Assembly (NCBI GenBank): GCA_002897895.1
Contig: BDSY01000027.1
Location: forward strand, 4,644 to 68,643
DNA length: 64,000 nt
Reading direction: 5' to 3'
Origin: a bacterium BMS3Abin06
Lineage (GTDB): Bacteria; Nitrospirota; Thermodesulfovibrionia; UBA6902
Shown here: piece by piece, positions 35 to 39,942 of the stretch
Position numbering within the stretch: position 1 is the first letter of the stretch
Layout: the number at the start of each line of letters is the position of its first letter
Program-made: the position numbers and the translations under genes
Notes under the pieces: generated by a model
What the model was told of the DNA's origin: nothing
The model's database searches: none
The model's input: only the letters and a program-made list of their open reading frames with translations

Positions 35-1033
35 ATGGAAATTAAAAACAGGAAAGTTCTTGTTACAGGGGCAGACGGTTTTATCGGCAGCCATCTTGTT
101 GAGAGACTGGTGGAAGAGGGCTGTCAGGTAAAGGCCTTTGTGTTTTATAACTCATTTAATTCATGGGGCTGGCTTGATACGTATTCAAACGGTTTTATGA
201 AAGAGATTGAGATATTCCCCGGCGATGTTCGTGATCCGAATGGAGTAAGGAAGGCTGTTAAAGATGTAAACCTCGTTTTTCATCTCGCTGCGTTAATAGC
301 TATACCGTTTTCGTATCATTCACCTGATTCTTATATTGATACAAACATAAAAGGCACCCTGAATGTCCTTCAGGCATGCAGGGATTTTGACATCGAGAGG
401 GTTATTGTCACGTCCACTTCCGAGGTATATGGTACGGCACAGTATGTTCCGATTGATGAAAGTCATCCCCTGCAGGGCCAGTCTCCGTACTCGGCCACAA
501 AGATAGCGGCGGATAAAATCGCCGAATCTTTCTACAGGTCTTTTGACCTGCCTGTAATTACGGCAAGGCCTTTTAATACTTATGGGCCGAGGCAGTCGGC
601 CCGGGCCGTATTGCCCACGATTATTACACAGTTGCTGTCAGGGGGAATAGAGATAAAGTTAGGTTCTTTACACCCGACGAGAGATTTGAATTATGTCAGG
701 GATATATGTGAGGGATTTATTGCCATTGCAAGGTCTGAACAAACAATCGGGAAAGAGATAAATATTTGCAGCAATAAGGAGATATCCGTCGGCAATCTGG
801 CTCAGATGCTGGTTGATATGATAAATCCGGAAGCTGCAATTATAAATGATGAACAGAGGACAAGACCCGGTAACAGTGAAGTCGAAAGATTAATGGGAAA
901 CAATGAAAAGATTAAAAAACTGACCGGTTGGAATCCTGATTACACATTGGATTCAGGACTAAAAGAAACGATTGAATGGTTCAAAAAGAAAGAAAATCTC
1001 AGGCGGTATAAAACGAAAATTTACAATGTATAA
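35..1033 (+). CDS. legB: NAD-dependent 4,6-dehydratase, LegB-type
   Basis: GADGFIGSHL Rossmann motif, SPYSATK (YxxxK), PFNTYGPRQSARAV; heads a nonulosonic acid cluster. Confidence 0.85.
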   Translation: MEIKNRKVLVTGADGFIGSHLVERLVEEGCQVKAFVFYNSFNSWGWLDTYSNGFMKEIEIFPGDVRDPNGVRKAVKDVNLVFHLAALIAIPFSYHSPDSYIDTNIKGTLNVLQACRDFDIERVIVTSTSEVYGTAQYVPIDESHPLQGQSPYSATKIAADKIAESFYRSFDLPVITARPFNTYGPRQSARAVLPTIITQLLSGGIEIKLGSLHPTRDLNYVRDICEGFIAIARSEQTIGKEINICSNKEISVGNLAQMLVDMINPEAAIINDEQRTRPGNSEVERLMGNNEKIKKLTGWNPDYTLDSGLKETIEWFKKKENLRRYKTKIYNV

Positions 1034-2144
1034 AGAAATTTATTTAGATGCTCCGAATATCGGGGAACTTGAAAAACTCTATCTGAATAAAGCGATAGAC
1101 AGCGGGTATATATCGTCAGTAGGTCCCTCTGTTCCTGAATTTGAAGAGAAATGCGCTGATTATCTGCAGATCAAAAAATCCGTTTCAACTAACTCCGGTA
1201 CGTCCGCCCTGCATATAGCCTTATACGATCTTGGAATCGGAACAGGCGATGAGGTGATTGTTCCTGCTTTAACCTTCATAGCAACTGCAAACCCCGTTAT
1301 ATATGTTGGAGCAACTCCGGTATTAGTTGATGTCGATACACGGACATGGGACATATATCCAGTGGCAATTGAAAAAGCTGTAACGGAAAAAACAAAGGCG
1401 ATCATACCTGTCCACCTGTACGGCAACCCCTGCGATATGAATGAAATCAATCGAATCGCAAAAAAATATAATCTGTATGTTATTGAGGATGCAGCGGAAA
1501 GTCTGGGCGCAAAATATGGAGGCAAATTTACAGGAACTCTCGGTGATCTCGGATGTTTCAGTTTTAACGGGAACAAGACAATTACTACAGGCGGCGGCGG
1601 CATGGTCGCCGGGAATGACGAACAGCGATTGGATCATATTAAATTTCTCATTAATCAGGCGAGAGATAACCCCGGCGAAATATACCATTCGGAGATTGGT
1701 TTTAATTATAGAATGACAAATCTGCAAGCCGCAATAGGTCTTGCCCAGTTTGAGAGATTGGAAGAACTTCTTGCGAAAAAGAGGGCATTCAATAGCGCGT
1801 ATAAAGAGGAGCTGAAAGACCTTAAAACTGTCCGCTTCCAGAAAGAATATGAAACGGCAGAGAGTTCATCCTGGTTTACGGGCATTATTGCTGAGGATGC
1901 AACTATAAGAAGTGATTTACAGAAAAGACTGAAAGAAAGAGGTATCCCGACGAGAAGGGTTTTCAGACCACTCAATGAATTCCCTCCTTACCGGAATTGC
2001 AGATTTATAGACCACGGCAATTCACATTACATTTATGAGAGAGGAATCTGTCTGCCGGGTTCAACTCTTAACGAAATAGAAGACGTTAATTATATATGTA
2101 AAACATTAAAGGAGTTTTATTGTGAAGGCAGTTTCGTCTGCTAA
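1026..2144 (+). CDS. legC: DegT/DnrJ/EryC1/StrS PLP aminotransferase, LegC-like (start moved to ATG 1026, overlapping legB stop)
   Basis: IEDAAESLG, FSFNGNKTITTGGGGM, GFNYRMTNLQAA motifs; position after legB. Confidence 0.8.
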   Translation: MYKEIYLDAPNIGELEKLYLNKAIDSGYISSVGPSVPEFEEKCADYLQIKKSVSTNSGTSALHIALYDLGIGTGDEVIVPALTFIATANPVIYVGATPVLVDVDTRTWDIYPVAIEKAVTEKTKAIIPVHLYGNPCDMNEINRIAKKYNLYVIEDAAESLGAKYGGKFTGTLGDLGCFSFNGNKTITTGGGGMVAGNDEQRLDHIKFLINQARDNPGEIYHSEIGFNYRMTNLQAAIGLAQFERLEELLAKKRAFNSAYKEELKDLKTVRFQKEYETAESSSWFTGIIAEDATIRSDLQKRLKERGIPTRRVFRPLNEFPPYRNCRFIDHGNSHYIYERGICLPGSTLNEIEDVNYICKTLKEFYCEGSFVC

Positions 2145-2187
2145 TACAGGAAACAGGGTTTATTGCCGGATATTTTGAAGGATTGTG

Positions 2188-2826
2188 ATGGAAGGACGCG
2201 AAAAAATTATTTTATTGGGCGGCGGTGGACACTCGAAGGTTCTGGCAGAACTTATACGATTGTCGGGGAAATATGAAATCATGGGGATATTAGATTCAGA
2301 GCTTGAAGCAGGTGCTACTATTTGCGGGATTACTGTTCTTGGTAATGATGAACTGCTTCCCGGTTTAAATGTAAACGGGATAAAGAATGCATGTATAGCT
2401 GTCGGAAGCGTTAAAGATAACAGGAAAAGAAAAAAACTTTATGAGTTAGTCAGAAGCTCCGGGTTTTATGTGCCGTATTTAATTCATCCGCAGGCAATTG
2501 TATCGCAGACTGATACAGATATTTCCGAGGGTGTGCAGATAATGGCAGGCGCAATTGTCCAGGCAGGAAGCATCATTGGTGAGAATACCATTATTAATAC
2601 CGGTGCAATAGTCGAGCATGATTGCACAATCGGCAAAAATGTACATATTTGTCCGGGGGCTGTTGTATGCGGCGGCAGTACCATCGGCGATAATTCCTTT
2701 ATAGGCGCAGGCGCAACAGTGATACAGGGAATTGAAATTGGTAAAGACACTGTAGTCGGGGCAGGAGCATTGGTTCATAAAAATTTGACTGAAGGAGTTT
2801 TGGTAAAGGGGGCTCATACGAAATGA
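2188..2826 (+). CDS. NeuD/PglD-family hexapeptide-repeat sugar acetyltransferase
   Basis: LGGGGHSKV N-terminus, IHPQA, left-handed beta-helix repeats (IINTGAIVEHDC). Confidence 0.9.
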   Translation: MEGREKIILLGGGGHSKVLAELIRLSGKYEIMGILDSELEAGATICGITVLGNDELLPGLNVNGIKNACIAVGSVKDNRKRKKLYELVRSSGFYVPYLIHPQAIVSQTDTDISEGVQIMAGAIVQAGSIIGENTIINTGAIVEHDCTIGKNVHICPGAVVCGGSTIGDNSFIGAGATVIQGIEIGKDTVVGAGALVHKNLTEGVLVKGAHTK

Positions 2827-3824
2827 AAACCTTTATCATTGCAGAGGCAGGCGTAAACCACAACGGTAAAATAGATATCGCCAGAAAGCTTGTTGACGCT
2901 GCTGTGGATTCAGGCGCGGATGCAGTTAAATTCCAGACTTTCAAAGCAGAAAAACTGGTAAGCCGTTATGCGCCTAAAGCTGAATATCAAGCTCAGACAA
3001 CTGACAGAAACGAGTCGCAATACGAAATGCTGAAAAGGCTGGAGCTGGATGCCGGGGCATTTAAGGAACTGGTCAGCTACAGCAGGAAAAGAGGAATTGT
3101 ATTTTTATCTACGGCGTTTGATTTGGAGAGTATTGATTTCCTGAATGAACTCGATCTGGAAATATTCAAGATCCCATCCGGTGAAATTACCAATCTGCCG
3201 TATCTGTGGAGAGCAGGAAGTTTATCGAAGAAAATAATTATATCAACCGGCATGGCAGACATGGGAGAGATAGAAGATGCCCTCGATGTTCTTACAGAGG
3301 CAGGAACTCCTAAAGAAAATATAACGGTTTTACACTGTAATACAGAGTACCCCACTCCTTTTGAGGATGTGAATCTGCTTGCCATGCAGACTATCAGAGA
3401 TGCATTCAAAATCAAGGCAGGTTATTCGGATCATACACAGGGCATAGAAGTATCTGTTGCCGCAGCCGCGCTCGGGGCAGCAGTCATAGAAAAACATTTC
3501 ACACTCGATAAAAAGATGCCGGGTCCTGACCACAGCGCCTCTCTGGAACCATATGAACTTAAGGCAATGGTAATGGCAGTAAGGAATATCGAAAAAGCCA
3601 TAGGCAGCGGAATTAAAAAACCTTCGCCTTCAGAATTGAAAAACAGGGCTGCAGCCCGCAAGAGCATAGTAGCATTAAGAAATATAAGAAAAGGGGAACT
3701 CTTGTCAGAGGAAATAATAACCACGAAGAGGCCGGGGACAGGGATCAGCCCCATGCAGTGGGATAAGGTGGTAGGCCAAACCGCGCTGAAAGATTTTGAA
3801 GCCGATGCGCTTATAGAAATTTAA
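2823..3824 (+). CDS. neuB: N-acetylneuraminate/legionaminate synthase (NeuB/LegI family) with C-terminal SAF domain
   Basis: IIAEAGVNHNG, AVKFQTF, KIPSGEITN, GYSDHT, IEKHFTLD, KRPGTGISP. Confidence 0.95.
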   Translation: MKTFIIAEAGVNHNGKIDIARKLVDAAVDSGADAVKFQTFKAEKLVSRYAPKAEYQAQTTDRNESQYEMLKRLELDAGAFKELVSYSRKRGIVFLSTAFDLESIDFLNELDLEIFKIPSGEITNLPYLWRAGSLSKKIIISTGMADMGEIEDALDVLTEAGTPKENITVLHCNTEYPTPFEDVNLLAMQTIRDAFKIKAGYSDHTQGIEVSVAAAALGAAVIEKHFTLDKKMPGPDHSASLEPYELKAMVMAVRNIEKAIGSGIKKPSPSELKNRAAARKSIVALRNIRKGELLSEEIITTKRPGTGISPMQWDKVVGQTALKDFEADALIEI

Positions 3825-3995: not shown

Positions 3996-4943
3996 ATGGA
4001 GACGGGAATGTCGGAAACCCTGAAACAGATAAAACCGAAGCAGCACCACAATTACGTTGCATTCTTTCTGACCCTGGCATGCAATCTGCGCTGTCCCTAT
4101 TGCATCAATCTGCATGATGGTGGATTGCGATATAAAAAGGCAAAAAGAAGGCAGATGAAGGCAGATGACTGGATAAAGGCGGCAAACAGGCTGGTTCTGA
4201 GGGATGATCTGCCCCTTTCACTTCAGGGGGGCGAGGCAACCCTTTACAGGGACTTTTACAGGTTTGTTAATGAAGTGAAGGAAGAAATAAAAATGGATTT
4301 GTTGACCAACATGATGTTTGATGTCGATGAATTCATCAAAAATGTTCCGCTGTGGAGATTCACAAGGGAAGCGCCCTATGCAGCCATACGGGCCAGTTAT
4401 CATCCCGGTCAGAACAACATAGATGATCTGATTGAAAAGACCTGCAAACTTCAGGATGCCGGTTTCAGGATCGGGATTTACGGTATCGATCATCCGTCCA
4501 TTACAGATCATATTCTTGAGACAAAGGAAAGATGTCTGAAGCAGGGCATTGATTTCAGGACAAAAGAGTTTCTTGGAGAATGGGAAGACAAACTCTATGG
4601 GACGTTTAAGTATGAAGGCTCTGTGCGTGGAGATGAAATGAAACACCGCGAATGCAGAACTACTGAAATAATCGTGGATCCGGCAGGGTATGTATATAAA
4701 TGCCATTCAGACCTTTACAACGGAAGAAATCCTTTTGCCCATATACTGGATGATGACTTTAACGAGGACGAAATAGAAAAGTTCAGGCCCTGTGATTTTT
4801 ATGGTGACTGCAACCCATGTGATGTAAAGGTCAAGACAAACAGGTTCCAGATATTCGGCCATACGAGCGTGGAGATAAGGAACCTGAAAGACCTGATGGA
4901 AAATAAAAAAGTAAAGGAAATGCATTTAGCTGCAAAGGAATAA
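3996..4943 (+). CDS. Radical SAM protein with Cys-rich C-terminal (SPASM/twitch-like) region; start may be ATG 4008
   Basis: CNLRCPYC, LQGGEATL, C-terminal YKCH...CDFYGDCNPCD. Confidence 0.85.
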   Translation: METGMSETLKQIKPKQHHNYVAFFLTLACNLRCPYCINLHDGGLRYKKAKRRQMKADDWIKAANRLVLRDDLPLSLQGGEATLYRDFYRFVNEVKEEIKMDLLTNMMFDVDEFIKNVPLWRFTREAPYAAIRASYHPGQNNIDDLIEKTCKLQDAGFRIGIYGIDHPSITDHILETKERCLKQGIDFRTKEFLGEWEDKLYGTFKYEGSVRGDEMKHRECRTTEIIVDPAGYVYKCHSDLYNGRNPFAHILDDDFNEDEIEKFRPCDFYGDCNPCDVKVKTNRFQIFGHTSVEIRNLKDLMENKKVKEMHLAAKE

Positions 4944-6016
4944 TGGATAAGTATCTTATAGACAGTCATAAACTGCTCTGGCATCTCGACAGGGTCACAG
5001 AATGGCAGGACAAAAGGGTCATTGCACCTGTTTATATTGAGATCAGCCCGGTCTCATTCTGTAACCACAAATGTATCTTCTGCGGAATCGACTTTGCGAG
5101 AGACAAGGGCTTCAAGCTGGAGAGGGAGGCACTCTGTAAAAGACTTGAAGAAATGGGGAAGGCAGGTGTAAAGAGCGTAATGTTTGCCGGAGAAGGTGAG
5201 CCTTTATTGCATAAAGACCTGCCGGAATTTATCAGGACTGCAAGCAATGCCGGCATCGATGTTTCGGTAACAACAAACGGAACCTTGGGAAATTATGATT
5301 TATGGAAAGAGACACTCCCTCATCTTACCTGGATAAGATTCAGTGTGGATGCCGGAACTGCCGGGGTACATGCCAGGGTCCATAATGTTCCGGAAACTTT
5401 TTTTGAGAGGACAGTTGAGAGCATTGAACAGGCTGTCAAGGTAAAAAAGGTGCAAGGGCTTGATGTCACTGTAGGTGTTCAGTTTTTGATAATCGAGGAA
5501 AACCTGAATGATATTGAAAATGCCCTGAGCCTGTTTTCAGGACTTGGGGTTGATTACATAAGCCTTAAACCGTACTCCCTGCATCCACAGATGATAAAGA
5601 AAAAAGAGACCGTTTACACGGATGAAGTAATAAGACATATAGATGATGTAGTTGATGGGTACAGGAAGAACTCAGGTCTGAACATAATTTTCAGGAAAGA
5701 GGCGCTAAAGAAATATATGACTAAGATAAAAATGTTTAAACACTGCTCTGCTCTTCCATTCTGGGGATACATATCTTCAAAAGGCGATTTCTACACATGC
5801 AGTGTATTCATCGGCGATGAGAGATTTAAAACCGGGAACATTCATGAAAACAATATAGATCAGATTTTTTTCGGACAAAAAAGAAAGCAGTCAATACGAT
5901 ACGGAGAGGACGGACTGGTTATTAAAGAAGAGTGCAGACTGAACTGCAGAATGGCGCGGATAAACGAGTTCCTCGAAATTATTGAAAATAAGCCGGAGCA
6001 TGCAAACTTTATTTAG
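4943..6016 (+). CDS. Radical SAM/SPASM-type protein
   Basis: CNHKCIFC, FAGEGEPLL, WIRFSVDA, C-terminal C..LPF...GDFYTC...CRLNC. Confidence 0.9.
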   Translation: MDKYLIDSHKLLWHLDRVTEWQDKRVIAPVYIEISPVSFCNHKCIFCGIDFARDKGFKLEREALCKRLEEMGKAGVKSVMFAGEGEPLLHKDLPEFIRTASNAGIDVSVTTNGTLGNYDLWKETLPHLTWIRFSVDAGTAGVHARVHNVPETFFERTVESIEQAVKVKKVQGLDVTVGVQFLIIEENLNDIENALSLFSGLGVDYISLKPYSLHPQMIKKKETVYTDEVIRHIDDVVDGYRKNSGLNIIFRKEALKKYMTKIKMFKHCSALPFWGYISSKGDFYTCSVFIGDERFKTGNIHENNIDQIFFGQKRKQSIRYGEDGLVIKEECRLNCRMARINEFLEIIENKPEHANFI

Positions 6017-6024: not shown

Positions 6025-6990
6025 ATGGCTACAAAAGTACTCATAATTAAACTCGGTTATTCAGAGACACTGGACCAGGAGATAGGAAGGATTCCGAGCC
6101 TCGGGGATGTCCTTAGAACGACCCCGATCCTCTGGGGATTTAAAGAAAAGTATCCTGACAGTCATATAACATGGCTTGTTTCACGTGAAGCGGAACCACT
6201 GCTTACAGGCAACAAGTTCATTGACAGGCTAATGATATGGGATGAATTTGTTCCTTATCAACTGATGAGAGAAAAGTTTGATGTAATGGTAAACCTTGAA
6301 AAGATTCCGGGAGTATGTGCGCTGTCCGATATGATTGATGCATGGGTTAAATATGGATTCCGTTTTGAAAGTGTTAGCGGAACATACCATGCCTATGAGA
6401 AAGGTCTGAACTTCATTGAGTATATAAAAGATAAGCAGAACAGGAAAAAGAGCAAGGACCACTGGCAGCAGGTATTGATAGAAATGGTCGGTGTTAAGTG
6501 GAGGGGACAGGGTTATATCCTGGGATATGATCCCAGGTCTACAGAGAAATACGACATTGGATTTAACTACAATGTCGGAAAGAAATTTCAGACCAAGGCC
6601 ATGTCGATCGGGAAATGGAAAGCACTTGAAAGCAGTCTCGAAGAGCAGGGGTACAATGTATCATGGCAGGAAGGGTTAAAAGATCTTAATGATTATATTG
6701 AATGGATTAACTCCTGCAGACTTTTGATAACACAGGACAGTCTTGGGGTCCATATAGCCCTTGCCCTTAAAAAGAGGATGATAGGATTGTTCGGCCCCAC
6801 GGATGCACAGGAGATATACTTCCATAATTTCGGCAAGTCAATATATTCAAGGCAGGAGTGTCACCTTATGCATTGCTATAGTCCCACATGTTTGACTGGA
6901 TTGAACTGTATGGAATATCTGAATACGGATGAGATACTGAAAGCAGTCGATGAAATGCTCGGAGCAAAGAAGGTAAGTTTGGCAAATTAA
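6025..6990 (+). CDS. Glycosyltransferase family 9 (heptosyltransferase-like)
   Basis: SLGDVLRTTP, ITWLVS, ITQDSLGVHIALALKK..IGLFGPT. Confidence 0.85.
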   Translation: MATKVLIIKLGYSETLDQEIGRIPSLGDVLRTTPILWGFKEKYPDSHITWLVSREAEPLLTGNKFIDRLMIWDEFVPYQLMREKFDVMVNLEKIPGVCALSDMIDAWVKYGFRFESVSGTYHAYEKGLNFIEYIKDKQNRKKSKDHWQQVLIEMVGVKWRGQGYILGYDPRSTEKYDIGFNYNVGKKFQTKAMSIGKWKALESSLEEQGYNVSWQEGLKDLNDYIEWINSCRLLITQDSLGVHIALALKKRMIGLFGPTDAQEIYFHNFGKSIYSRQECHLMHCYSPTCLTGLNCMEYLNTDEILKAVDEMLGAKKVSLAN

Positions 6991-8362: not shown

Positions 8363-10927
8363 ATGATATATTCAATTTTAGAACAGAAAAACATGGATGT
8401 TACATCAGAAGATGCGGGACCGTCGTCAGCCGAGGGTACTGATTATAACAATGTTATTGTCAAGAAGCCATGGGGATATGAGTACCTGGCTTTTGAGAAT
8501 GAACACGTAGCCATATGGATCCTTCAGCTTGTCCGTAAAAGAAAGACATCAATGCATTGCCACCCCAGAAAAAAGACTTCATTAATCCTCCTGCAGGGGC
8601 AGGCAGTATTTCATCATCTGGACGGCAATGTTTCTTTAGGGGACATGGATGGAGTTGTTATCAAAAATGGAGTTTTTCACTCGACAGAAGCTTATAATCC
8701 TCTGCCCATTACTCCACAATCCGAAAACGGAATATGGGTCATGGAGATTGAATCACCTCCTTATAAATCCGATCTTGTACGCATGCAGGATGCGTATGGA
8801 CGGGCAGGGACTGCTTATGAAGGATCGAGCCATATGGTGCAGGAACCCGAAAGTTACCTGCAGCTGCGGGTGCCGGATTCTTCAGAAGATCTAAAACAGA
8901 AGTTTTTTGACTGTATCTTTACTGTTCATAAAGGCGTCTTTGATAAAGAACTGCCGGCTGATGATGCTCTGATATCAGTGATTGCGCGCGGCGGGGAGAA
9001 TGGAAGTAAGAATCCGGCTTTTTCGGTAGGCGGGTTATCTGAATTCAGGGAATTCAGGAAGAGCGTGGAAAATGTGGACCTCGATGGATATGTTTTTTTG
9101 ATTATTGAAAAAGAGAAAAAGATCATGAGGACTGCTGACTATGTTTTTAACCGAATTGCCGAGTTAGGTGTGAAAGAAGTATTTGCAGTCTCGGGCGGCG
9201 GGGCCATGCATCTTGTGGATGCCGCAGGAAAAAACGAAGACATTAACTATGTCGCGGTCTACCATGAACAGGCAGCTGCCATGGCCGCGGAAGGATATGC
9301 ACGCATAACCGGTAAACCGGGAGTCACGCTCGTTACTTCAGGCCCTGGTGGTACGAATACCATTACCGGTCTCTGCGGGGCATGGATTGATTCAATACCG
9401 ACGATCTTTATTTCAGGACAGGTGACGACCAATACACTGCTGGAAGGGACCGGCCTCCGGCAGTTCGGCATTCAGGAATCAGACATTGTCAGTCTGGTTA
9501 AACCGGTCACAAAATACGCGGTGACAGTAAAAGATCCGGAGATGATCCGGTACCATATTGAAGAAGCGATCTATCATGCGACCAGTGGACGCCCCGGTCC
9601 TGTATGGCTGGACATCCCGCTTGATATTCAGAGCAGACTTATTAATCCCGATGAACTCAGACAGTTCAATCCCCATAGTAAATCTATCCGGGTAGTTTCG
9701 GATGATCTTAAGGGGAAGGTGTCTAAGTGTATAGATTTAATAAAGAAAGCTGAAAGGCCAGTTGTAATCAGTGGTTATGGGATAAGGCTTTCGCATGGAG
9801 AAGAGGAATTTATCCGGTTAGTTGAAATGATAGGGGCGCCTGTTATTTCTTCATGGACGAGCAGCGATTTAATCCCGTCCGATCATGATCTCTATATCGG
9901 GCGCAGCGGGATCATGGGAGACAGGGCCGGTAACTTTACTGTCCAGAATGCTGACCTGCTGCTGGTCATTGGATCAAGGATGTCGATCCCCCAGGTTGGT
10001 TACAACTTCAAGGTATTTGCACGGGAGGCCAAAAAGATAGTTGTAGACATTGACAGGGCCGAGCTTGAAAAGGAGTCGCTCCGGACTGACCTCCCGATCC
10101 AGAGTGACGCAAAGGAATTCATTGAGGAATTGATAAGACAGTTGGAAGAATCAGGCGCAGAGGCCGGATCTCGGAGCTGGCTTGATCAATGCAGAAAGTG
10201 GAAAGAGAAATATCCGGTTGTCCTGCCTGAATATGAAGGCAATGAAGATGCAGTGAACTCATTTTATTTCGTGGATCTGCTTTCGAAGAAGCTCGATAAG
10301 GATGCGGTCATTGTTACGGACATGGGGACAAGTTTTACCTGTACCATGCAGACATTCAAAATCAAAGCGGAGCAGAGGCTCTTTACTTCAAGCGGCCACG
10401 CATCCATGGGTTTCGGACTGCCAGGGGCAATAGGGGCATGCTTCGCGCACGGGAAGAAGACTATATGCATTAGCGGTGACGGAGGTCTCCAGATGAACAT
10501 CCAGGAATTTCAGACACTGGTCCAGTATAAACTGCCGGTCATCCTGTTTGTCTTGAATAATCAGGGGTATCTCACAATTAAATTAATGCAGCAAAATCAT
10601 TTTGGCAGATATGTTGGATCTGATCCGTCCAGCGGAGTCGGAACCCCGGATATTGTAAAGATTGCTCAGGCTTATGGAATTAAAGCGGATCGCATTGCAG
10701 ACCATAAAGAATTAAATCAGAAGATTGATTCCATCCTTGCGGAAGATGGCCCGTTTGTATGTGAGGTGATGATGCCGCCGGAACAGCAGTTGATTCCGAG
10801 GGTTTCTTCCCTGAAAAAACCTGACGGAACTATTATTTCAAAACCACTGGAAGATTTATACCCATTTCTGGACAGAGAAGAATTTCTGGAAAATATGATT
10901 GTGAAACCGGTGGAACCGCTAAAGTGA
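8363..10927 (+). CDS. Fusion of N-terminal cupin domain and ThDP-dependent acetolactate-synthase-like enzyme
   Basis: KPWGYEY...SMHCHP...FHST cupin. HEQAAAMAAEGY, TSGPGGTN, GRPGPVWLDIP, GDGGLQMN...NNQGY ThDP motif. Confidence 0.85.
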   Translation: MIYSILEQKNMDVTSEDAGPSSAEGTDYNNVIVKKPWGYEYLAFENEHVAIWILQLVRKRKTSMHCHPRKKTSLILLQGQAVFHHLDGNVSLGDMDGVVIKNGVFHSTEAYNPLPITPQSENGIWVMEIESPPYKSDLVRMQDAYGRAGTAYEGSSHMVQEPESYLQLRVPDSSEDLKQKFFDCIFTVHKGVFDKELPADDALISVIARGGENGSKNPAFSVGGLSEFREFRKSVENVDLDGYVFLIIEKEKKIMRTADYVFNRIAELGVKEVFAVSGGGAMHLVDAAGKNEDINYVAVYHEQAAAMAAEGYARITGKPGVTLVTSGPGGTNTITGLCGAWIDSIPTIFISGQVTTNTLLEGTGLRQFGIQESDIVSLVKPVTKYAVTVKDPEMIRYHIEEAIYHATSGRPGPVWLDIPLDIQSRLINPDELRQFNPHSKSIRVVSDDLKGKVSKCIDLIKKAERPVVISGYGIRLSHGEEEFIRLVEMIGAPVISSWTSSDLIPSDHDLYIGRSGIMGDRAGNFTVQNADLLLVIGSRMSIPQVGYNFKVFAREAKKIVVDIDRAELEKESLRTDLPIQSDAKEFIEELIRQLEESGAEAGSRSWLDQCRKWKEKYPVVLPEYEGNEDAVNSFYFVDLLSKKLDKDAVIVTDMGTSFTCTMQTFKIKAEQRLFTSSGHASMGFGLPGAIGACFAHGKKTICISGDGGLQMNIQEFQTLVQYKLPVILFVLNNQGYLTIKLMQQNHFGRYVGSDPSSGVGTPDIVKIAQAYGIKADRIADHKELNQKIDSILAEDGPFVCEVMMPPEQQLIPRVSSLKKPDGTIISKPLEDLYPFLDREEFLENMIVKPVEPLK

Positions 10928-12489
10928 CCATGACAACTAATGTAGAAAAATCTGTTTATGATGCCGTGATAGTAATGAATACTGAGCATGATCAAACAGC
11001 GATTGCAAAAGTCGACATTGAAGCAGGGGAAGCGATTACAGATAATGGTATTGTCATTGAAATCAGGAATTCTGTAAAAAAGGGGGAGAGGTTTGCGATC
11101 AGGGAGATCCCCCAGGGTGAATATGTCCGTCAGAATGGATATGCGTTTGGCCGGTCAAAGGGAATAGAAAAAGGTGAGATTATCTCTTCTCTCAATATTA
11201 TAAATATGATTCCTGATACTGACCTGGAAGAATACAGTGAACCGGCAGATACAGAATATAATGAAGAATTGTGCAGAAAGACATTTTCAGGTTATCCGCG
11301 AAAAGACGGTACGGCGGGGACAAGAAATTATTATTTAGTAATTCCTACATCAATGTGTGCCAGTGAAGTTGCTCTGCAGGTTGCATCATCTTTTGCAGAT
11401 AACGAGAATCTGCTGGAAAAATATTCGTCACTGGACGGCATTATTGCAATACCTCATACAGAGGGGTGCGGATGCGATTCGGAGATTTCGATCAGCAGGC
11501 TCATGAGGGTGCTGGCAGGGTATGCGCGCCACCCCAATGTCGGCGGATGTCTTATTATCGACCTTGGATGTGAACAGACTAATTACAGGGTGATGCATTC
11601 GTATATGGAGCAGGAGATCCCAAAAAATCTGAAGCCGATCGACTGGATTACCATTGAAGAGAACGGGGGTGTGGAGGCGTCGATAAAAAAAGCGCGGGAA
11701 ATAATCATCGGACAATTAAGAGAGCTTAATGAGAACAGAAGACAGGACTGTCCGATTGAAAAACTTGTCGTTGGCACGGAATGCGGGGCTTCGGATTCCT
11801 TCTCGGGTCTTACGGCCAACCCCCTGATAGGGAATGTAGCAGACAGAATCGTTTTGGGGAAAGGGATGGTCATCCTCTCCGAGATACCTGAACTGGTCGG
11901 GACTGAGCAGATGCTGCATTCACGGTTCAGCAATCTGAACGTGTCTAAGAAATTCCGGAACTTGATTAAATGGTATGAAGATCTTGCAGGTAAACTGGGT
12001 ATGACATTAGAATCCAATCTTGTTCCCAAAAATGTTGAAGGCGGATTATTTAATACGTATATAAAAAGTCTGGGCGCTGTGTTAAAAGGCGGGACAACAG
12101 TAATTGAAGATGTTGTTGATTATGGAGAACCTCTTGTGAAAAGCGGACTGAATATCATGCAGGGTCCGGGAGGTGACCTTGAATCCGTGACAGGCATGGT
12201 AGCGTCCGGGGCAAACATGGTCCTGTTTTCAACAGGGCAGGGCACCCCGACAGGAAATGCGATATGTCCGGTAATCAAGGTTGCATCCAACAGCGATGTT
12301 TTTTTGAAACTGAGTAATGATCTGGATTTTAACGGTGGTCGGCTGTTTGATGAGTATGAGACTATTGAATCATTAGGAGATGAACTGCTGAATATGGTCA
12401 TTGAAGTTGCGTCCGGAAAGCAGACGGCAGCCGAAAAATTGAAACAGCGGCAGTTTCAGATATGGACAGCGGGGAAGTTGCCATTGTGA
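10924..12489 (+). CDS. UxaA/GarD-family sugar-acid dehydratase with SAF domain
   Basis: GTRNY, HTEGCG, HPNVGG, GTECGASD, NPLIG, TGQGTPTG. Confidence 0.9.
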   Translation: MTMTTNVEKSVYDAVIVMNTEHDQTAIAKVDIEAGEAITDNGIVIEIRNSVKKGERFAIREIPQGEYVRQNGYAFGRSKGIEKGEIISSLNIINMIPDTDLEEYSEPADTEYNEELCRKTFSGYPRKDGTAGTRNYYLVIPTSMCASEVALQVASSFADNENLLEKYSSLDGIIAIPHTEGCGCDSEISISRLMRVLAGYARHPNVGGCLIIDLGCEQTNYRVMHSYMEQEIPKNLKPIDWITIEENGGVEASIKKAREIIIGQLRELNENRRQDCPIEKLVVGTECGASDSFSGLTANPLIGNVADRIVLGKGMVILSEIPELVGTEQMLHSRFSNLNVSKKFRNLIKWYEDLAGKLGMTLESNLVPKNVEGGLFNTYIKSLGAVLKGGTTVIEDVVDYGEPLVKSGLNIMQGPGGDLESVTGMVASGANMVLFSTGQGTPTGNAICPVIKVASNSDVFLKLSNDLDFNGGRLFDEYETIESLGDELLNMVIEVASGKQTAAEKLKQRQFQIWTAGKLPL

Positions 12490-12560: not shown

Positions 12561-12579
12561 GATTTTAAAGGAGGTTGTT

Positions 12580-14022
12580 GTGTTAAGGAAACCGAACAAT
12601 CCGAATAATATTAATTTGACAAAGGAATCTCTTGTTACACCGAATCAGGATGAGATAATCAAGTATCACAGCCGCAAGGGGGCTTTTTATACCGCGTTTC
12701 CGTCCCCAGGTTTGTGGGAAGATAGTTTTCAGTATCCGCAGTACCGCGACTCTCTGAAAGATGTATATGGTACGGAGCCGGACCTGCCGACACAGTTTTA
12801 TGTCCATTTTCCGTTTTGTAAAACACAGTGCTGGTACTGCCAGTGCTTCCAGGTCGTCTCAAGAAACCAGGAGAAGATGGACCACTTTATGGAATATATG
12901 TTCAAGGAGATAGACCTGCATCTGGAGTTCTTTGAGCAGAATGGGATTAAACCGAATTTTAACGAGATCCATCTCGGGGGCGGGACACCTTCGTATATAT
13001 CCCCCCAAATGTTCGATAAGATGATCGCCAAATTGCGCACGTTTATCGATATTGATAATATTGAAGAATTTGCAATCGAGATAGACCCCCGTACAACTGA
13101 CAAGGAAAAACTTCAGGCTTATCGCGATGCAGGGATCAACCGCGTCTCTTTCGGGATACAGGACTTTGATCTGAAAGTACAGAAGGCGATCAACCGTGTC
13201 CAGCCGGTCGAAATGATCGAGGAGCTACTTGAGATGCGCCACCTGTTTAAGGGAGTCAATTTTGATCTGATTTATGGAATGCCGTTACAGACACGGGAGT
13301 CATTGCGGAAGACGTTAGAGACGGTCATGCGTCTGTCCCCGGACCGGATTGCCTTCAGTATCCTCGGGTACCGGCCGGATGTATTCCGGCATAACGCTAA
13401 TATCAATGCCGACGATATCCCGGGGTTTATCGAGAAGGCGTATATGTGGGAAGACTCGTTCCCGTTTTTCCTGGAGCATGGGTATGAGCGTGTCGGGATG
13501 GACCACTTTGCCAGGCCTGACGATGAATTGACCATTGCAAAGAACAATGAGGTACTGTTCCGAAATCAGATGGGCTACTCGCCCGGCCGGTTTGCGGACA
13601 ACCTGGGAATCGGCCCGTCCGGCATGAGCCGTCTTAAGAATTATTATACCTGCAACAGCTATAGTCTGGATGACTACAAAAAGATGATTGATGAAAAGAC
13701 ATTCCCGGTTATCAGAGGGATTACATTAAACAGGGACCTCGAAATCCGGCGGGATGTGATGAACAAGATCATGGTCTATTATCATGTTAATTTCACTTAT
13801 TTTAATCATCTCTACAATATTGAGTTTAAGGACTATTTCAAAAAAGAACTCGAAGCTATGCGGGAATTCGTGGAGATCGGGGCACTGGAGATCAATGAAG
13901 ACAGCTTTTCGATGACACCTTACGGCAATTTTTTCCTGCGGAACATCTGCATCATCTTCGATAACCTCGGTAAGGAATATAAACATAATATGGAAACAGG
14001 GGTAAAGATCGCTGCCTGTTAG
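12580..14022 (+). CDS. HemN-like (class C-type) radical SAM enzyme; probable GTG start 12580 after AAGGAGG
   Basis: YVHFPFCKTQCWYC, GGGTPS, EIDPR, NRVSFGIQD, DLIYGMP, GMDHFA; diverged FYTAFP and RNQMGY motifs. Confidence 0.85.
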   Translation: MLRKPNNPNNINLTKESLVTPNQDEIIKYHSRKGAFYTAFPSPGLWEDSFQYPQYRDSLKDVYGTEPDLPTQFYVHFPFCKTQCWYCQCFQVVSRNQEKMDHFMEYMFKEIDLHLEFFEQNGIKPNFNEIHLGGGTPSYISPQMFDKMIAKLRTFIDIDNIEEFAIEIDPRTTDKEKLQAYRDAGINRVSFGIQDFDLKVQKAINRVQPVEMIEELLEMRHLFKGVNFDLIYGMPLQTRESLRKTLETVMRLSPDRIAFSILGYRPDVFRHNANINADDIPGFIEKAYMWEDSFPFFLEHGYERVGMDHFARPDDELTIAKNNEVLFRNQMGYSPGRFADNLGIGPSGMSRLKNYYTCNSYSLDDYKKMIDEKTFPVIRGITLNRDLEIRRDVMNKIMVYYHVNFTYFNHLYNIEFKDYFKKELEAMREFVEIGALEINEDSFSMTPYGNFFLRNICIIFDNLGKEYKHNMETGVKIAAC

Positions 14023-14031: not shown

Positions 14032-14814
14032 ATGGGAAAAGTCCAGTTTGGCCTGGAAGATAAAGGCGTTCTCATTACAGGCGCCTCAAAAGGATTAGGG
14101 GCTGTATGCGCGGGTGCGCTGAGTGAAGAAGGGGCGCGTCTGGTCCTGATGGCCCGCTCAGGAGACAGGCTTGAAGAGGTGCGGAAGAATTGCAGGGACA
14201 GAGACAGACATTTGAGTATTGCCCTGGACCTGTGTGATATGCAGGCGCTTGAAAGTGCGGTGAAAAAAGCAGAGGAGTTTCTGGGTGATATTGATGTTGT
14301 CCTGCATGTTGCCGGCGGCGGCCTGGGTATGCGTGATCCATTGTTAAGTGCGGATGAGTTCTTTAAATTGTTTTCGCTTAATGTTGCCGCGTCTGTACAG
14401 ATCAATAAAATGGTTGCCCCTAAGATGATGGAAAGAAAACAGGGAAACCTCGTTCATGTCTGTTCCATTTCATCAAGTGAAGCAACCGGTTCTGTTGGTT
14501 ACAACACTGTCAAGGCGGCTCTGGCCGCATATGTGCGCTCTCTGGGACGGGAGATTGCGGGATCAGGTGTTGTGGCAACAGGTATCCTGCCCGGTGGTTT
14601 TTATGCGCCGGAAAATGCGTTTGCCCGATTGAAAGAAAGAAATCCGGAAGGGTTTAAAGACTTTGTTGAAAGACGTCTCCCACGCAAAGTTATCGGAAGA
14701 GCAGAAGAGCTTGTCCCGATGATACTTCTATTATCTTCTGAAGCAGCATCCATGATGGGCGGGTGTCTGGTCCCTATTGATGCAGGTGAAGGATTGAATT
14801 TTATAACGTCATGA
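14032..14814 (+). CDS. SDR-family oxidoreductase
   Basis: TGASKGLG, YNTVK (YxxxK). Confidence 0.9.
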   Translation: MGKVQFGLEDKGVLITGASKGLGAVCAGALSEEGARLVLMARSGDRLEEVRKNCRDRDRHLSIALDLCDMQALESAVKKAEEFLGDIDVVLHVAGGGLGMRDPLLSADEFFKLFSLNVAASVQINKMVAPKMMERKQGNLVHVCSISSSEATGSVGYNTVKAALAAYVRSLGREIAGSGVVATGILPGGFYAPENAFARLKERNPEGFKDFVERRLPRKVIGRAEELVPMILLLSSEAASMMGGCLVPIDAGEGLNFITS

Positions 14815-16694
14815 TAGAAACTGAAACAATGATCCCGGTGGTCAGTCACGAGAACGCTGAATTTGATAACAGCAAACTGGAAGCGTATGTACGGGAGCTG
14901 CGCCGGAAGTTTCATCTGAACAACCGGCTTCTTCTGGTGCAGACCCTTCAGTTTCAATTAGACGCGTTTAATATCGAGGTAGCACGTAATCGGGGATACT
15001 ATGCATATCCTCCGGCAGGGCTGCAGTGTTTAGTCAAGGCTTTGAAAGACCAGGGGCTTGAGATCGAGATACTGGACCTGAATTATGAACTGCTGAAAAG
15101 GGTTATCGAGGATGAAACATTTGATCATACGGATTGGCTCACTATTCTGGATGAAACACTTGAGCGGTTTGGGCCGACCATGGTGGGTGTAACCTGTATA
15201 GGAGTGGCCGCGCAATTATCAAAACCTTCACATCCTCTGACTGGTGTCCTGAGGCATCTTGCGGAAAAAAATAAATATGTACTTATGGCAGGTGGGCCGA
15301 TCGCGACTGATGAGAAGTATGGGTATCTTTTTGAAGAACTCTGTCATTTTGTTGTTGAGAGTGAAGGAGAAAATAAAATCAATGTTCTTATAGATCATCT
15401 TCTGGATAAAGAAGAGAAGCATAAGCCAACACCCGGTATCTGTTTTAAATATGAAGGTGAATTTGAACAGTCCCGGGGGGCGGAGGATAAAGTGAGAGTC
15501 GAAGGGAATTTGATTGATTATTACAAATACCCGATTGCTGATTATTGCAGGGCTGGTTCCCTGAATCCTTTTTCGAGAATGGCAGGGCAGGATGTGCCGT
15601 TTGCCTCGATCCAGTTGAACAGGGGGTGCCGCTCCAACTGCCGGTTTTGCGGAGTCACAAAGTTTATGGGACCCGGTGTGCGTCAGGCGCCGGTGCAAGC
15701 TGTTTATAATGAAATAGTTTATCTTGTAGAAGAGAAGGGCATCAGGCATTTTGAACTCCTTGATGATGATTTTTTCGGTCCGCCGGGACTTCGAGCAGGA
15801 GTTAATGAATTGTTGGGCAACATGTGTAAATTAAAGGAAACGTATGGCATAAGCTGGTCAGCCGGAAACGGTTTGATCGCAGGTTCTATTGATGACAATC
15901 TCATGCAGTTAATTCATGACTCGGGCTGCATAGGTTTTCGCATAGGGATCGAGTCGGGAAATACGGAGATCCTGGAAAAAATGCGCAAACCCGCATCTGT
16001 CAAATCTATAAAAACGTTTGCATCAAAGACAAAGGATTATCCGGACATGTTTGTGAGTGCGAATTATATTATCGGCTTATACGGTGAAGAGACCTTCGGA
16101 CAGATGATGGATACTTATCGCATGTCATGTGAACTGGACCTTGATTGGTCATCGTATTCGACATTTCAGTTTTCGAGCAAATCAACGAGCAGGATCGAGG
16201 GATTGAGAGATGATGATAAGGGCGCCACTGAATGTATTCCGAGCAAAGACAGTGTATCCCGTGAGATCACAAGGAAAGAAGGTCTCCTCTCTGGCGCTGA
16301 GATATTTAATATCCCGGAGGAGACGGTTCCTTCAAGGGAGCAGGTGATAGAGATATGGTACACCTTTAATTTCCTTTCGAATTATATCTATAACAAAAAC
16401 CTCAGACCCGGAGGGAACCACCGAAAACTCGTTTCATGGATAAAGGCTCTCCAGTTGACCTATCCGAATAACGCATATATGCCGCTTTTTACAGGATTGG
16501 GATATGTCCTCTGTAATGATCCGGAAAAGGCTAAAGAAGAGCTTGAGAAAACAAAAACAAATATAAGGCATTCAGAGGAAGCCGCGTCACGGTTCGCAGA
16601 GTTTCACCTGACAGGCCTGGTCGATGACTTTCCGTCTGAAAAGGAAGAAGTTTATCAGCGTCTGGAAGAAATTGGAAAGAGATTTCCTCATTGA
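14811..16694 (+). CDS. Cobalamin-binding radical SAM protein
   Basis: YPPAGLQCL, AGGPIAT, RGCRSNCRFC, LLDDDF, GIESGN. Confidence 0.85.
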   Translation: MIETETMIPVVSHENAEFDNSKLEAYVRELRRKFHLNNRLLLVQTLQFQLDAFNIEVARNRGYYAYPPAGLQCLVKALKDQGLEIEILDLNYELLKRVIEDETFDHTDWLTILDETLERFGPTMVGVTCIGVAAQLSKPSHPLTGVLRHLAEKNKYVLMAGGPIATDEKYGYLFEELCHFVVESEGENKINVLIDHLLDKEEKHKPTPGICFKYEGEFEQSRGAEDKVRVEGNLIDYYKYPIADYCRAGSLNPFSRMAGQDVPFASIQLNRGCRSNCRFCGVTKFMGPGVRQAPVQAVYNEIVYLVEEKGIRHFELLDDDFFGPPGLRAGVNELLGNMCKLKETYGISWSAGNGLIAGSIDDNLMQLIHDSGCIGFRIGIESGNTEILEKMRKPASVKSIKTFASKTKDYPDMFVSANYIIGLYGEETFGQMMDTYRMSCELDLDWSSYSTFQFSSKSTSRIEGLRDDDKGATECIPSKDSVSREITRKEGLLSGAEIFNIPEETVPSREQVIEIWYTFNFLSNYIYNKNLRPGGNHRKLVSWIKALQLTYPNNAYMPLFTGLGYVLCNDPEKAKEELEKTKTNIRHSEEAASRFAEFHLTGLVDDFPSEKEEVYQRLEEIGKRFPH

Positions 16695-16700
16695 GATAAT

Positions 16701-18770
16701 GTGATGAACGATAACAAAACAAAAAAAGGGATCTATATAGCTCAATTCGGGACAGGATCAACTATTAACCTTCTGCCTCTGGCTGCGGGGCTTCTCGTCT
16801 CACGTTTGAAAGAGGAGAAGGAGTTTTTAAAAAAATATCATCTTGGGGAGATTATTTTTCAAAGGCCGGATAACCCTGAAGAGTTCGTTGCGTCCCTCAG
16901 GGAAGTATTCGTAATGGGTTTATCATTTTCGCTCTGGAATATGAACATTAATTTTACCATTGCCGGAGAGGTAAGGAAAATGTTCCCTGATGCCTTAATT
17001 GTCGGGGGTGGTCCCTCGATTGCCAAGGACCCGGAACTGGTAGATGCCTTTTTTAAAGAACATCCTTATATTGATGTAATTGCGGCCGGGGAGGGTGAGG
17101 AAGCGTTTGTCTCTTTATGCAAACATCATGATGAGGGCAGGAGTTTTGACGATATACCGGGGATCATTTATCGTAACCGGAAAACAGGTGAAGTCCATTA
17201 CGGCCGGCCGGATGAGATACTGCAGATGGAGAAGCTGCCGTCTCCTTTTCTGGACGGGACGTTTGATGACCTGTATGAAAAGTACCATGATGTGTTCTCC
17301 GGAATGATCTGGGAAACCAACCGTGGATGTCCGTTTACATGCTCGTACTGCACGTGGGGTAACTATTCTTCAAGAAAGATACGGATGAATTCCATGGAGC
17401 GTATACGAAGCGAAGTGGAGTGGATCGGGAAAAATAATATCGGCTATATTGCTATGAGTGACGCGAATTTCGGAATTAAAGCACGCGATGTCGAGATAGC
17501 AGGCATGCTGGCTGAATGTAAGAAGAAGTATGGTGTGCCGAATTTCATCTCGGTCAGTTGGGTAAAGAATATAGCGGACAGGGTCCTTCAGATATCGGAT
17601 ATTTTAAAGACTGCCGGGATAGGGTTCCGGGTTACCATGGCGCTGCAGAGCCATAATGAAGATGTTGTTGAGGCGGTGAATCGAAAGAATGTAAAGAAGA
17701 GTACGTTCACCAGGATCAAGGACGTTTACCATTCGCAGAGGCTTTATTCCTATACTGAACTGATACTGGGTCTGCCGCTTGAGACGTATGAATCATTTGT
17801 TTCAGGAGTTGAGAAGAGTTTAAGTGAGAGTGTGTTTGATCAGGTCTATATTTACCCCTGTTTTCTTTTTCCGAACACGCAGCTTTCTTCCCCCCGGAGT
17901 ATTGAGCGGTACGGGATAAAGAGCAAAGAGACAGCCGGCGGATATACCAAAAGCAAGGGTTCTTCAAAGATCGGGGAGAAGATGGATATTGTTGTCGGGA
18001 CAGATGCCATGCCAATGGAAAAATGGGTTGATTCGTTTGTAGAAGGATATTTTATGACAGGGCTGCATGATGACCGCCTGGCTTTTTTTGTGTTCCAGTA
18101 TCTGAAGAAAACATTCGGGATAAAGGTGAAGAATATTATTGTGTTTATGCGCGGGAGAAGCTCGCCGGACAGAACACCGCTTATCAGCAGGGAGTTTAGA
18201 AGGATCGAAAGGACCGCAGAAAATGTCCAGTCTCACGGGGAGTCGCACCTAATGGAGCTTCCTGACTATGGCGGGATTATCTATGACTCGCCGGATGCAG
18301 TTTTTCTGGACCTGCTGTATAAACGCGATGCGTTCTATATAGAGATGCAATCGCTGGTTGAGATGTATCTTAATGAAGCGCAGGTGGGATTTGATCAGAC
18401 AAAGCTGGATGACCTGTTCATTTTTCAAAAGGCGGTCATGGCGCATCCGGACGGCCCTGGCGCTGACGCGGTCGATTTACAGTATGACTGGATAAAGTAT
18501 TTCCGGTTTGCCTTTAATTATGCTGAGGAACCTCTTCAGGAGAAGACAGACCGATTACAGATTATTGATACTGCTCCTTCTGATGGAGACGGAGAACAAT
18601 TCTTAAAGAACCATTTTAATGTGCGGGGTGAACCGGCATTTAATCTTTTGGTGGATGAAGATGGGACGATTGTGTTCCCGTCTGTTTTGATTACGCGTAC
18701 CGGTGGCAGGGAATATTCCGGGGAAGAAAGAAAGTTTAATGATAAAAGAGTAAAGGAACTTGTTGGATAG
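16701..18770 (+). CDS. Cobalamin-binding radical SAM protein with long C-terminal extension
   Basis: LPLAAGLL, VGGGPS, GEGEEAF, ETNRGCPFTCSYC, SDANFG, ELILGLPLET. Confidence 0.85.
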   Translation: MMNDNKTKKGIYIAQFGTGSTINLLPLAAGLLVSRLKEEKEFLKKYHLGEIIFQRPDNPEEFVASLREVFVMGLSFSLWNMNINFTIAGEVRKMFPDALIVGGGPSIAKDPELVDAFFKEHPYIDVIAAGEGEEAFVSLCKHHDEGRSFDDIPGIIYRNRKTGEVHYGRPDEILQMEKLPSPFLDGTFDDLYEKYHDVFSGMIWETNRGCPFTCSYCTWGNYSSRKIRMNSMERIRSEVEWIGKNNIGYIAMSDANFGIKARDVEIAGMLAECKKKYGVPNFISVSWVKNIADRVLQISDILKTAGIGFRVTMALQSHNEDVVEAVNRKNVKKSTFTRIKDVYHSQRLYSYTELILGLPLETYESFVSGVEKSLSESVFDQVYIYPCFLFPNTQLSSPRSIERYGIKSKETAGGYTKSKGSSKIGEKMDIVVGTDAMPMEKWVDSFVEGYFMTGLHDDRLAFFVFQYLKKTFGIKVKNIIVFMRGRSSPDRTPLISREFRRIERTAENVQSHGESHLMELPDYGGIIYDSPDAVFLDLLYKRDAFYIEMQSLVEMYLNEAQVGFDQTKLDDLFIFQKAVMAHPDGPGADAVDLQYDWIKYFRFAFNYAEEPLQEKTDRLQIIDTAPSDGDGEQFLKNHFNVRGEPAFNLLVDEDGTIVFPSVLITRTGGREYSGEERKFNDKRVKELVG

Positions 18771-37588: not shown

Positions 37589-37731
37589 TCAGTAAGTATT
37601 CTGTGAAGTATTTTATTTTTTAATTACCATTCTATTTTTTCCAAAAAAGCGCTTTCATCCAGCGTATCCTCAAATATATCTTTTCTAAAAAAAATTTTAC
37701 ACTTCCGGTAAAGCTTTTGTATCAAAGCGGC

Positions 37732-37758
37732 TAAAGATTTCTAAAAAAAATCCGATAA
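37732..37758 (+). promoter_or_regulatory. Sigma28 (FliA/SigD) promoter of fliC
   Basis: TAAA-N15-TCCGATAA. Confidence 0.85.
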
Positions 37759-37972: not shown

Positions 37973-37978
37973 AAGACT

Positions 37979-39850: not shown

Positions 39851-39867
39851 TAGAATGCAAGAGTATT

Positions 39868-39901: not shown

Positions 39902-39942
39902 TCTCTATCTTACGATAGGGGAGGATAGGGGGAAAGATAAAT

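Follow-up and report, generated by a model that had tools for sequence, protein, structure and literature searches.

The 64,000-nucleotide stretch of DNA analysed here, referred to as the window (positions 4,644 to 68,643 of contig BDSY01000027.1, from the uncultured Nitrospirota bacterium BMS3Abin06), contains a flagellin glycosylation island, and within this island lies a cassette of genes for radical S-adenosylmethionine (SAM) enzymes and putative sugar-tailoring enzymes. One member of the cassette, the subject of the present work, encodes a 480-residue protein of the HemN family, which is named after the anaerobic coproporphyrinogen III dehydrogenase of Escherichia coli (HemN or CgdH; structure 1OLT). 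An earlier note made from the letters of this DNA proposed that the protein, called the query in what follows, is a repurposed HemN paralogue in a glycan locus that has no heme genes nearby. The locus is as the note described it: genes of the PseB, DegT, PglD and NeuB types are present together with Maf, flagellin, FlaG and FliD genes, and no tetrapyrrole genes were found within the 64-kb window. The proposal of a role outside heme synthesis is supported by phylogeny, gene neighbourhood and phyletic pattern.

The gene and its product

The listed open reading frame (ORF) opens at a TTG codon at 12559, and the GTG codon entered in Table 1 is favoured as the start given the Shine-Dalgarno sequence just before it; the protein database entry has the same 480-residue form. 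The gene sits in a co-directional, densely packed array, with the start of a short-chain dehydrogenase (SDR) gene 10 nt past its stop codon and a 4-nt overlap of the gene that follows. In the 70-nt spacer on its 5' side, which separates it from the dehydratase gene, the sequence aattacgaat / attcgtaat occurs in repeated and inverted copies (window 12510-12560; for example attacgaat at 12530-12538 and attcgtaat at 12544-12552), which may form a hairpin or represent a small repeat element.

In a profile search the query scores 407.7 bits on the equivalog model TIGR00538, over model positions 6-445 of 454, and it thus exceeds the cut-off of 324.95 bits, as a bona fide HemN/CgdH is expected to do. 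It aligns to residues 13-444 of 1OLT with 283 bits, its identity to E. coli HemN is 33% (BLASTP), and the N-terminal “trip-wire” segment, the radical SAM barrel and the C-terminal domain of that enzyme are all present. An AlphaFold2 model of the query, with a mean predicted local distance difference test (pLDDT) score of 87.6, superposes on 1OLT with template modelling (TM) scores of 0.83/0.91 and a root-mean-square deviation of 2.0 Å over 432 columns, and 1OLT is its only close structural match. The models for related families give a different result: the query reaches 150 bits on TIGR04107 (ChuW/HutW) against a cut-off of 400 and 126.5 bits on TIGR00539 (HemW) against a cut-off of 205.4, and its score on the STM4012 model is likewise far below the cut-off.

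Conserved and altered residues

Residues were compared among the query, the proteins of 80 species-representative loci (given here by L numbers where needed) and E. coli HemN, after the removal of 14 rows from high-GC loci in which the ORF had been taken in the wrong frame (L055, 57, 58, 59, 64, 67, 70, 71, 75, 78, 79, 84, 86 and 89). The canonical HemN reference set consists of 43 correctly framed rows, and residue numbers are those of E. coli HemN.

All 43 canonical rows contain PRYTSYP and RNFQGY, or near variants of them, and individual residues within these motifs are almost invariant (P21, R22 and S25 in 95-100% of the rows, with R22 at 95% and S25 at 98%, and F310 in 95%), although Q311 is variable even within the canonical set. 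The query reads GAFYTAFPS where a bona fide HemN/CgdH has GPRYTSYPTA, and RNQMGYSP where that enzyme has RNFQGYTT with F310; the canonical forms of both stretches have been named as motifs needed for coproporphyrinogen dehydrogenase activity (PMC10320005). The changes extend beyond these motifs and are shared with the clade to which the query belongs (see below), in which P21, R22, S25, S54, Q107, F134, L159, Y242-A243-H244, F310, T315, L321 and I329, each 86-100% conserved in the canonical rows, are replaced; the query itself has lost, besides the motif residues, S54, F134, YAH242-244, T315 and I329. K341 is changed to Y in 91% of the clade, and in the query too. At least five variants of the motifs occur within the clade, the FYTAFP/RNQMGY combination being one of them. 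Of the replaced residues, F310 and I329 are presumed to belong to the second-SAM site of 1OLT.

Common to the clade and the canonical HemNs are Y23, P27, Y56, H58, C62, C66, C69, C71, G111-113, E145, Q172, R184 and D209. Within this set the CxxxCxxCxC motif with its fourth cysteine, Y56, H58, G111 and G113, all of which are expected of a bona fide HemN/CgdH, are invariant in the clade, and the query retains them along with G112, E145, R184 and D209. Y56, H58, G111 and G113 are reported to be catalytic in HemN, as is the fourth cysteine, which is missing from HemW (PMC10680763). The position of the fourth cysteine is occupied by F or W in the HemW of this genome, in NocN and in the menaquinone-methylase motif. 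Overall, the clade of the query has preserved the radical-generating core, whereas what is presumed to be the substrate side has been remodelled.

The readings of the earlier note that concern the gene itself are borne out by these comparisons. Its boundaries agree with the GTG start, the stop codon, the GGAGG sequence and the positions of the three motifs; the “full HemN scaffold” is confirmed by the TIGR00538 and 1OLT alignments and by the superposition; and FYTAFP and RNQMGY, which the note took for altered substrate motifs, go beyond ordinary variation, given the conservation of R22, S25 and F310.

Phylogeny and cassette linkage

A scan of the genome collection with the query protein alone returned no relatives, and the scan was then repeated with the clade alignment. 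The maximum-likelihood tree was built from 59 rows, the 14 wrong-frame rows having been removed, and the characterised methylases of radical SAM class C were compared outside the tree, through hidden Markov model (HMM) scores and published motifs. The query falls in a 25-row clade with full support (ultrafast bootstrap, UFBoot, 100; Shimodaira-Hasegawa-like approximate likelihood ratio test, SH-aLRT, 100) and a stem of length 0.59, apart from E. coli HemN and from every canonical row, and so does not group with characterised HemN as a bona fide HemN/CgdH would. The search for NCBIfam or Pfam models that set this clade apart found none.

The clade is strongly associated with the cassette. When the window proteins were compared by tblastn with all fetched loci, cassette genes were found no more than 10 kb away in 22 of the 25 clade members, and no cassette genes were found beside the canonical HemN rows in the same loci. 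The 22 linked loci always contain at least one cobalamin radical SAM gene, often immediately upstream of the HemN-like gene, and their usual further companions are DJ-1, SDR, methyltransferase, thiamine diphosphate (ThDP) enzyme and UxaA-like or SPASM radical SAM genes; the query conforms to this arrangement, with two cobalamin radical SAM genes within 10 kb (Table 1). The ThDP gene is missing from many versions of the cassette, while the B12-dependent radical SAM enzymes are constant. A class I methyltransferase gene accompanies the clade member in 10 or more of the related loci. In some cassettes a NUDIX hydrolase lies beside the radical SAM genes (L105:5584-6051 and L107:11478-11963), which hints at a nucleotide-linked substrate.

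The three clade members that were found without cassette genes are L008, which is on a 3.8-kb contig, L026 and L028. In L008 (649-3757), on contigs whose protein has an NCBI name under Trichlorobacter lovleyi, a transketolase split into N and C halves comes after the clade member and takes the place of the YerE-like enzyme as ThDP partner.

The clade and its cassette are spread over more than 10 phyla. Carriers are found in Nitrospirota, Omnitrophota, Planctomycetota, Elusimicrobiota, Thermodesulfobacteriota (Geomonas), SAR324, Rhodospirillales, Saccharibacteria and Pacearchaeota, and the tree of the clade is incongruent with this taxonomy, which suggests that the cassette has spread by horizontal transfer.

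Heme synthesis in the genome and its class

The genome that carries the query is 92% complete. On its contig 11 (L093:5657-13456) it has a cluster of hemH, hemE, an AhbD-like radical SAM/SPASM gene, HemW and a decaheme cytochrome gene, with hemA elsewhere. The AhbD-like gene scores 431 bits, which is below the cut-off of 500 yet is the best match, and the HemW gene, at 316 bits on TIGR00539, is the next TIGR00538-type match after the query. HemF, HemY, HemJ and HemG were not found in this 92% complete genome; matches to TIGR00562, at no more than 46 bits, were considered as HemY and rejected as generic hits to the flavin adenine dinucleotide (FAD) fold.

A broader view is given by a sample of 81 Nitrospirota genomes of the same class, the query's own genome included. 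hemE is present in 78 of the 81 and an AhbD-like gene in 76, at a distance from hemE of about 100 nt or less where coordinates were compared, but HemN above the cut-off occurs in a single genome, that of the query, all other matches being of HemW grade at 185 bits or less. None of the 80 other genomes has a HemN-grade gene, and hemE is carried by 77 of them and the AhbD-like gene by 75. These counts indicate that the lineage makes heme without HemN. In organisms that use the coproporphyrin pathway and have none of the other Ahb enzymes, AhbD is reported to take the place of ChdC (PMC13564367).

A wider sample of the phylum yielded one further member of the class with a HemN-like gene, and this gene is the cassette-linked copy of Nitrospirae GWF2_44_13. 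Outside the class, a cassette copy occurs in two Pacearchaeota genomes and one Saccharibacteria genome in which neither hemE nor hemB gave a match, and in one Rhodospirillales genome the cassette copy is accompanied by a second, canonical gene elsewhere, with PRYTSYP and RNFQGY. The presence of the clade therefore does not track a protoporphyrin-dependent heme pathway, as that of a bona fide HemN/CgdH would be expected to do. In another family of the phylum, canonical-type HemN matches lie in open frames of 830-840 residues (G024:C23:112391-113698 and G066:C62:11023-12330), which may be fusions or the result of upstream in-frame read-through.

The earlier note had proposed a phylogeny and a search for a separate heme pathway as checks. 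The former agrees with its claim, since the query lies in a fully supported clade separate from canonical HemN. The latter does so in part: hemH, hemE, the AhbD-like gene and HemW are present on contig 11, but none of the four oxidases named above was found. The note had also held that its claim would fall if the query proved to be the only coproporphyrinogen dehydrogenase of the genome. Taken literally this is the case, because no other gene passes the TIGR00538 cut-off, but the test is judged not to be valid, because all 80 class relatives are without a HemN-grade gene and still carry heme genes.

The cassette and its surroundings

The coordinates of the gene, its motifs, the other cassette genes and the flanking glycan and flagellin genes are collected in Table 1.

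Table 1. Features of the window, with positions counted from its first nucleotide
Feature	Position	Strand	Remarks
HemN-family radical SAM gene, 480 aa	12580..14022	+	GTG start at 12580, stop at 14022
Shine-Dalgarno sequence GGAGG	12570..12574	+	5 nt upstream of GTG 12580
N-terminal motif FYTAFP	12685..12702	+	canonical RYTSYP (E. coli residues 22-27)
CKTQCWYCQC (CxxxCxxCxC)	12817..12846	+	three [4Fe-4S] ligands and HemN-specific fourth Cys
RNQMGY	13561..13578	+	canonical RNFQGY (F310 to Q, Q311 to M)
PseB-like dehydratase, DegT aminotransferase, PglD-like acetyltransferase, NeuB	35..3824	+	nonulosonic-acid synthesis (context)
Two radical SAM genes (315 aa; 357 aa, SPASM-type)	3996..6016	+	5' side of cassette
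GT9-family glycosyltransferase	6025..6990	+	conserved in L007 and L106
HAD phosphatase	7149-7823	+	
DJ-1/PfpI protein	7841-8356	+	DJ-1 present in 13 related loci
ThDP enzyme, 854 aa, N-terminal extension of ~250 aa	8363..10927	+	nearest solved relative YerE-like carboligase JanthE
UxaA/GarD-family sugar-acid dehydratase homologue	10924..12489	+	
Short-chain dehydrogenase (SDR)	14032..14814	+	
Two cobalamin-type radical SAM enzymes (627 aa; 689 aa, KedN5-family C-methyltransferase-like)	14811..18770	+	most constant companions of HemN-like gene
Class I SAM methyltransferase	18791-19489	+	
SPASM-type radical SAM enzyme	19567-20637	+	
Maf-type flagellin glycosyltransferase, flagellin, FlaG	34772..40335	+	context: probable glycan target

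The best solved relative of the ThDP enzyme is JanthE (8rph), a YerE-like aldehyde-ketone carboligase (PMC12188165), with 467 bits as against 298 for acetolactate synthase. In combination with the SDR, the ThDP enzyme recalls the synthesis of branched-chain sugars. Its N-terminal extension (8363-9124), which is kept in relatives of 832-861 residues, has a faint similarity to cupins and mannose-6-phosphate isomerase (E ~0.04).

On the 3' side of the cassette lie a pyruvate kinase barrel without the C-terminal domain, an adenosine 5'-phosphosulfate (APS) kinase and a 445-residue protein with a weak sulfotransferase match (20676-23854); a sulfotransferase-like gene likewise lies 3' of the cassette in L106. 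Genes for cytidine monophosphate (CMP) sugars also occur on this side and are followed by the Maf transferase, flagellin, FlaG and FliD genes. Just past fliD, on the opposite strand and outside the main cassette, there is an additional cobalamin-binding radical SAM gene (43925-45220, minus strand).

Discussion

The comparison of the query with known systems must take into account that the HemN fold has been put to several uses. The class C enzymes MenK/MqnK, TbtI, NosN/NocN, C10P-C10Q, YtkT, Jaw5 and ChuW/HutW are HemN-like but act on substrates outside the heme pathway or carry out chemistry other than that of HemN, and they set precedents for a “HemN” annotation that hides another function and for an enzyme that may pair with a methyltransferase-like protein. 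HemW, which is homologous to HemN, has a heme-related role that is not enzymatic, and in the genome of the query it adjoins heme genes; it lacks the N-terminal segment and the fourth cysteine, both of which the query has. Among systems that build sugars, the ThDP enzyme and SDR of the cassette resemble those of yersiniose-type branched-sugar synthesis (YerE/JanthE with a reductase), although this resemblance is limited by the absence of the ThDP gene from many cassettes in which the B12 enzymes persist, and the B12 enzymes resemble the cobalamin radical SAM C-methylases KedN5, TokK/ThnK, CysS and GenK, one of them matching the KedN5 family model. To our knowledge no class C radical SAM enzyme comes from a glycan pathway, no HemN-like protein takes part in glycan synthesis, and no branched-sugar or alkylation pathway includes a HemN-family enzyme. 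Reviews describe HemN-like subclades of unknown function, none of which is tied to glycans, and no literature description of a HemN-family enzyme in a flagellin or glycan cassette was found.

We consider it very likely that the query is not the heme enzyme of this organism. The reading that we favour, with a rough probability of 0.45, is that it belongs, as the HemN-family component, to a radical-SAM sugar-tailoring cassette that is conserved and has spread horizontally, and that it applies HemN-type chemistry to a sugar-borne side chain. The involvement of such a side chain is suggested by the retained core, the changed substrate side and the cassette linkage, and it is on genomic context that a non-tetrapyrrole substrate may be proposed, as the earlier note had done; the two-SAM enzyme of that note is less secure, because F310 and I329, presumed to line the second SAM site, are changed. 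According to this proposal the [4Fe-4S] cluster would cleave SAM to give a 5'-deoxyadenosyl radical, which would take a hydrogen atom from the side chain either without an intermediary or, as in HemN, by way of a second SAM and its methyl group. The substrate would be the side chain of a nucleotide-activated sugar or nonulosonate built by the neighbouring enzymes, and loss of an electron, along with CO2 where a carboxyalkyl group is present, would leave an alkene, so that the net effect would be HemN chemistry on a new, non-tetrapyrrole substrate. A 2-oxoglutarate-derived branch introduced by the YerE-like enzyme was considered as the source of a propionate group for decarboxylation, and it was down-weighted because the ThDP gene is missing in many cassettes. 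An outcome of the HemN type (hydrogen abstraction and oxidation to an alkene) is preferred tentatively, at somewhat below even odds, because the clade is close to true HemN and the fourth cysteine is invariant; a one-carbon transfer is a real but lesser possibility, because of the class C precedent and the alkylating character of the cassette.

Several observations weigh against the favoured reading. The query is the only gene above the TIGR00538 cut-off in its genome, and the heme route of this genome is not fully accounted for, no known coproporphyrinogen or protoporphyrinogen oxidase, and so no enzyme for the six-electron oxidation of the porphyrinogen, having been found in the 92% complete assembly. 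All of the residues reported as catalytic are retained, so some residual coproporphyrinogen dehydrogenase activity is possible. The basal subclade of L022 and L039 retains YYTSYP and F310, which indicates that recruitment to the cassette preceded the motif loss seen in the query and that this loss is not what recruited the protein. The clade members of L026 and L028 sit in truly different contexts, outside any cassette. Finally, the characterised catalytic HemN-like enzymes outside heme synthesis (MenK/MqnK, TbtI, NosN, YtkT, C10P, Jaw5 and ChuW) all carry out one-carbon transfer and none carries out decarboxylation (PMC10114718).

This last point leads directly to the explanation that competes most closely with the one preferred here, in which the query has the same role in the cassette but performs class C chemistry. 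The 5'-deoxyadenosyl radical would abstract a hydrogen atom from the methyl group of a second SAM, and the resulting SAM-methylene radical would add to an sp2 carbon of a sugar-borne intermediate and yield a C-methyl, exomethylene or cyclopropane product, perhaps with the class I methyltransferase-like protein encoded nearby as its partner, on the pattern of C10P/C10Q. The rest of the cassette is alkylating in character: it encodes two radical SAM methylases of the cobalamin type as well as the class I methyltransferase, whose co-occurrence in related loci is in keeping with such a partnership; moreover, if F310 and I329 line the second SAM site as presumed, their replacement could loosen this site so that S-adenosylhomocysteine (SAH) leaves. 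The features of the protein itself point the other way. The fourth cysteine, a hallmark of HemN, is invariant in the clade where NocN, HemW and the menaquinone-methylase motif have F or W; none of the five published menaquinone-methylase (MKMT) signature motifs (YFxxxRxE, QxTxYPLx, GxxFxxxYxGGGT, NxFxxxxY and CxxCxF) is present in the query; NocN matches it with 65 bits and over the barrel only; the scores on the ChuW/HutW, STM4012 and HemW models are low, as given above; and true HemN is the closest relative of the clade, while NosN and TbtI are grouped closer to HemW in a review. We regard class C chemistry in the cassette as a plausible minority outcome.

Two further explanations would connect the query with tetrapyrroles. 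It could be a true coproporphyrinogen III dehydrogenase for heme synthesis that merely happens to be located in a glycan island, and its unique standing above the TIGR00538 cut-off, which the cassette copy likewise has in four other cassette-bearing genomes, its intact fold and catalytic residues, and the many c-type cytochromes encoded by the genome (for example the decaheme gene beside HemW) are what such an enzyme would lead one to expect. This is nevertheless very unlikely in our judgement, since the 80 class relatives do without a HemN-grade gene while mostly carrying hemE and the AhbD-like gene, a protoporphyrinogen oxidase to use the product was not found in the genome, both motifs reported as required are altered, the clade also occurs in genomes without hemB or hemE, and the gene is tightly packed within a co-directional cassette. 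Alternatively, by analogy with the heme chaperone HemW, the query might not act on the sugar at all but serve the adjacent B12-dependent radical SAM enzymes as an accessory protein or chaperone for a tetrapyrrole cofactor. Its most constant neighbour is a cobalamin radical SAM enzyme, the tetrapyrrole-enzyme scaffold is fully kept, and the carriers include genome-reduced lineages without a hemB or hemE match, in which corrinoids would presumably be scavenged. Most B12 radical SAM enzymes are not known to need such a helper, however, and the invariance of the cluster cysteines, the fourth cysteine, Y56, H58, the GGG motif and E145 over a long divergence argues for catalysis, which makes a chaperone role the least probable of the explanations considered.

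The favoured assignment of the query to sugar tailoring has consequences for annotation as well as for biochemistry. The HemN annotation of the query is probably wrong, and because the curated equivalog model TIGR00538 names the whole clade as the anaerobic heme enzyme, annotation pipelines will mislabel its members, and a heme step will be wrongly inferred in metabolic reconstructions of Nitrospirota, Geobacteraceae, Planctomycetota, candidate phyla radiation (CPR) bacteria and DPANN archaea. HemN-like proteins have diversified into methylases, cyclopropanases and chaperones, to which this clade adds a candidate in glycan synthesis and, as judged from its sequences, what may be a new functional variant of the family; because it combines a full HemN catalytic core with a substrate side that has been remodelled, it is well suited to the study of how HemN chemistry is retargeted. 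The cassette predicts a new B12-dependent, carbon-alkylated sugar on the flagella and other surfaces of anaerobes. We judge the chances to be evenly balanced that the query is the first HemN-lineage enzyme found to act on a carbohydrate, adding an alkene, methyl or cyclopropyl group to the side chain of a nucleotide sugar or nonulosonate in concert with the cobalamin radical SAM methylases, and that the result is an undescribed, heavily carbon-alkylated surface sugar whose cassette has passed between bacteria and DPANN archaea.

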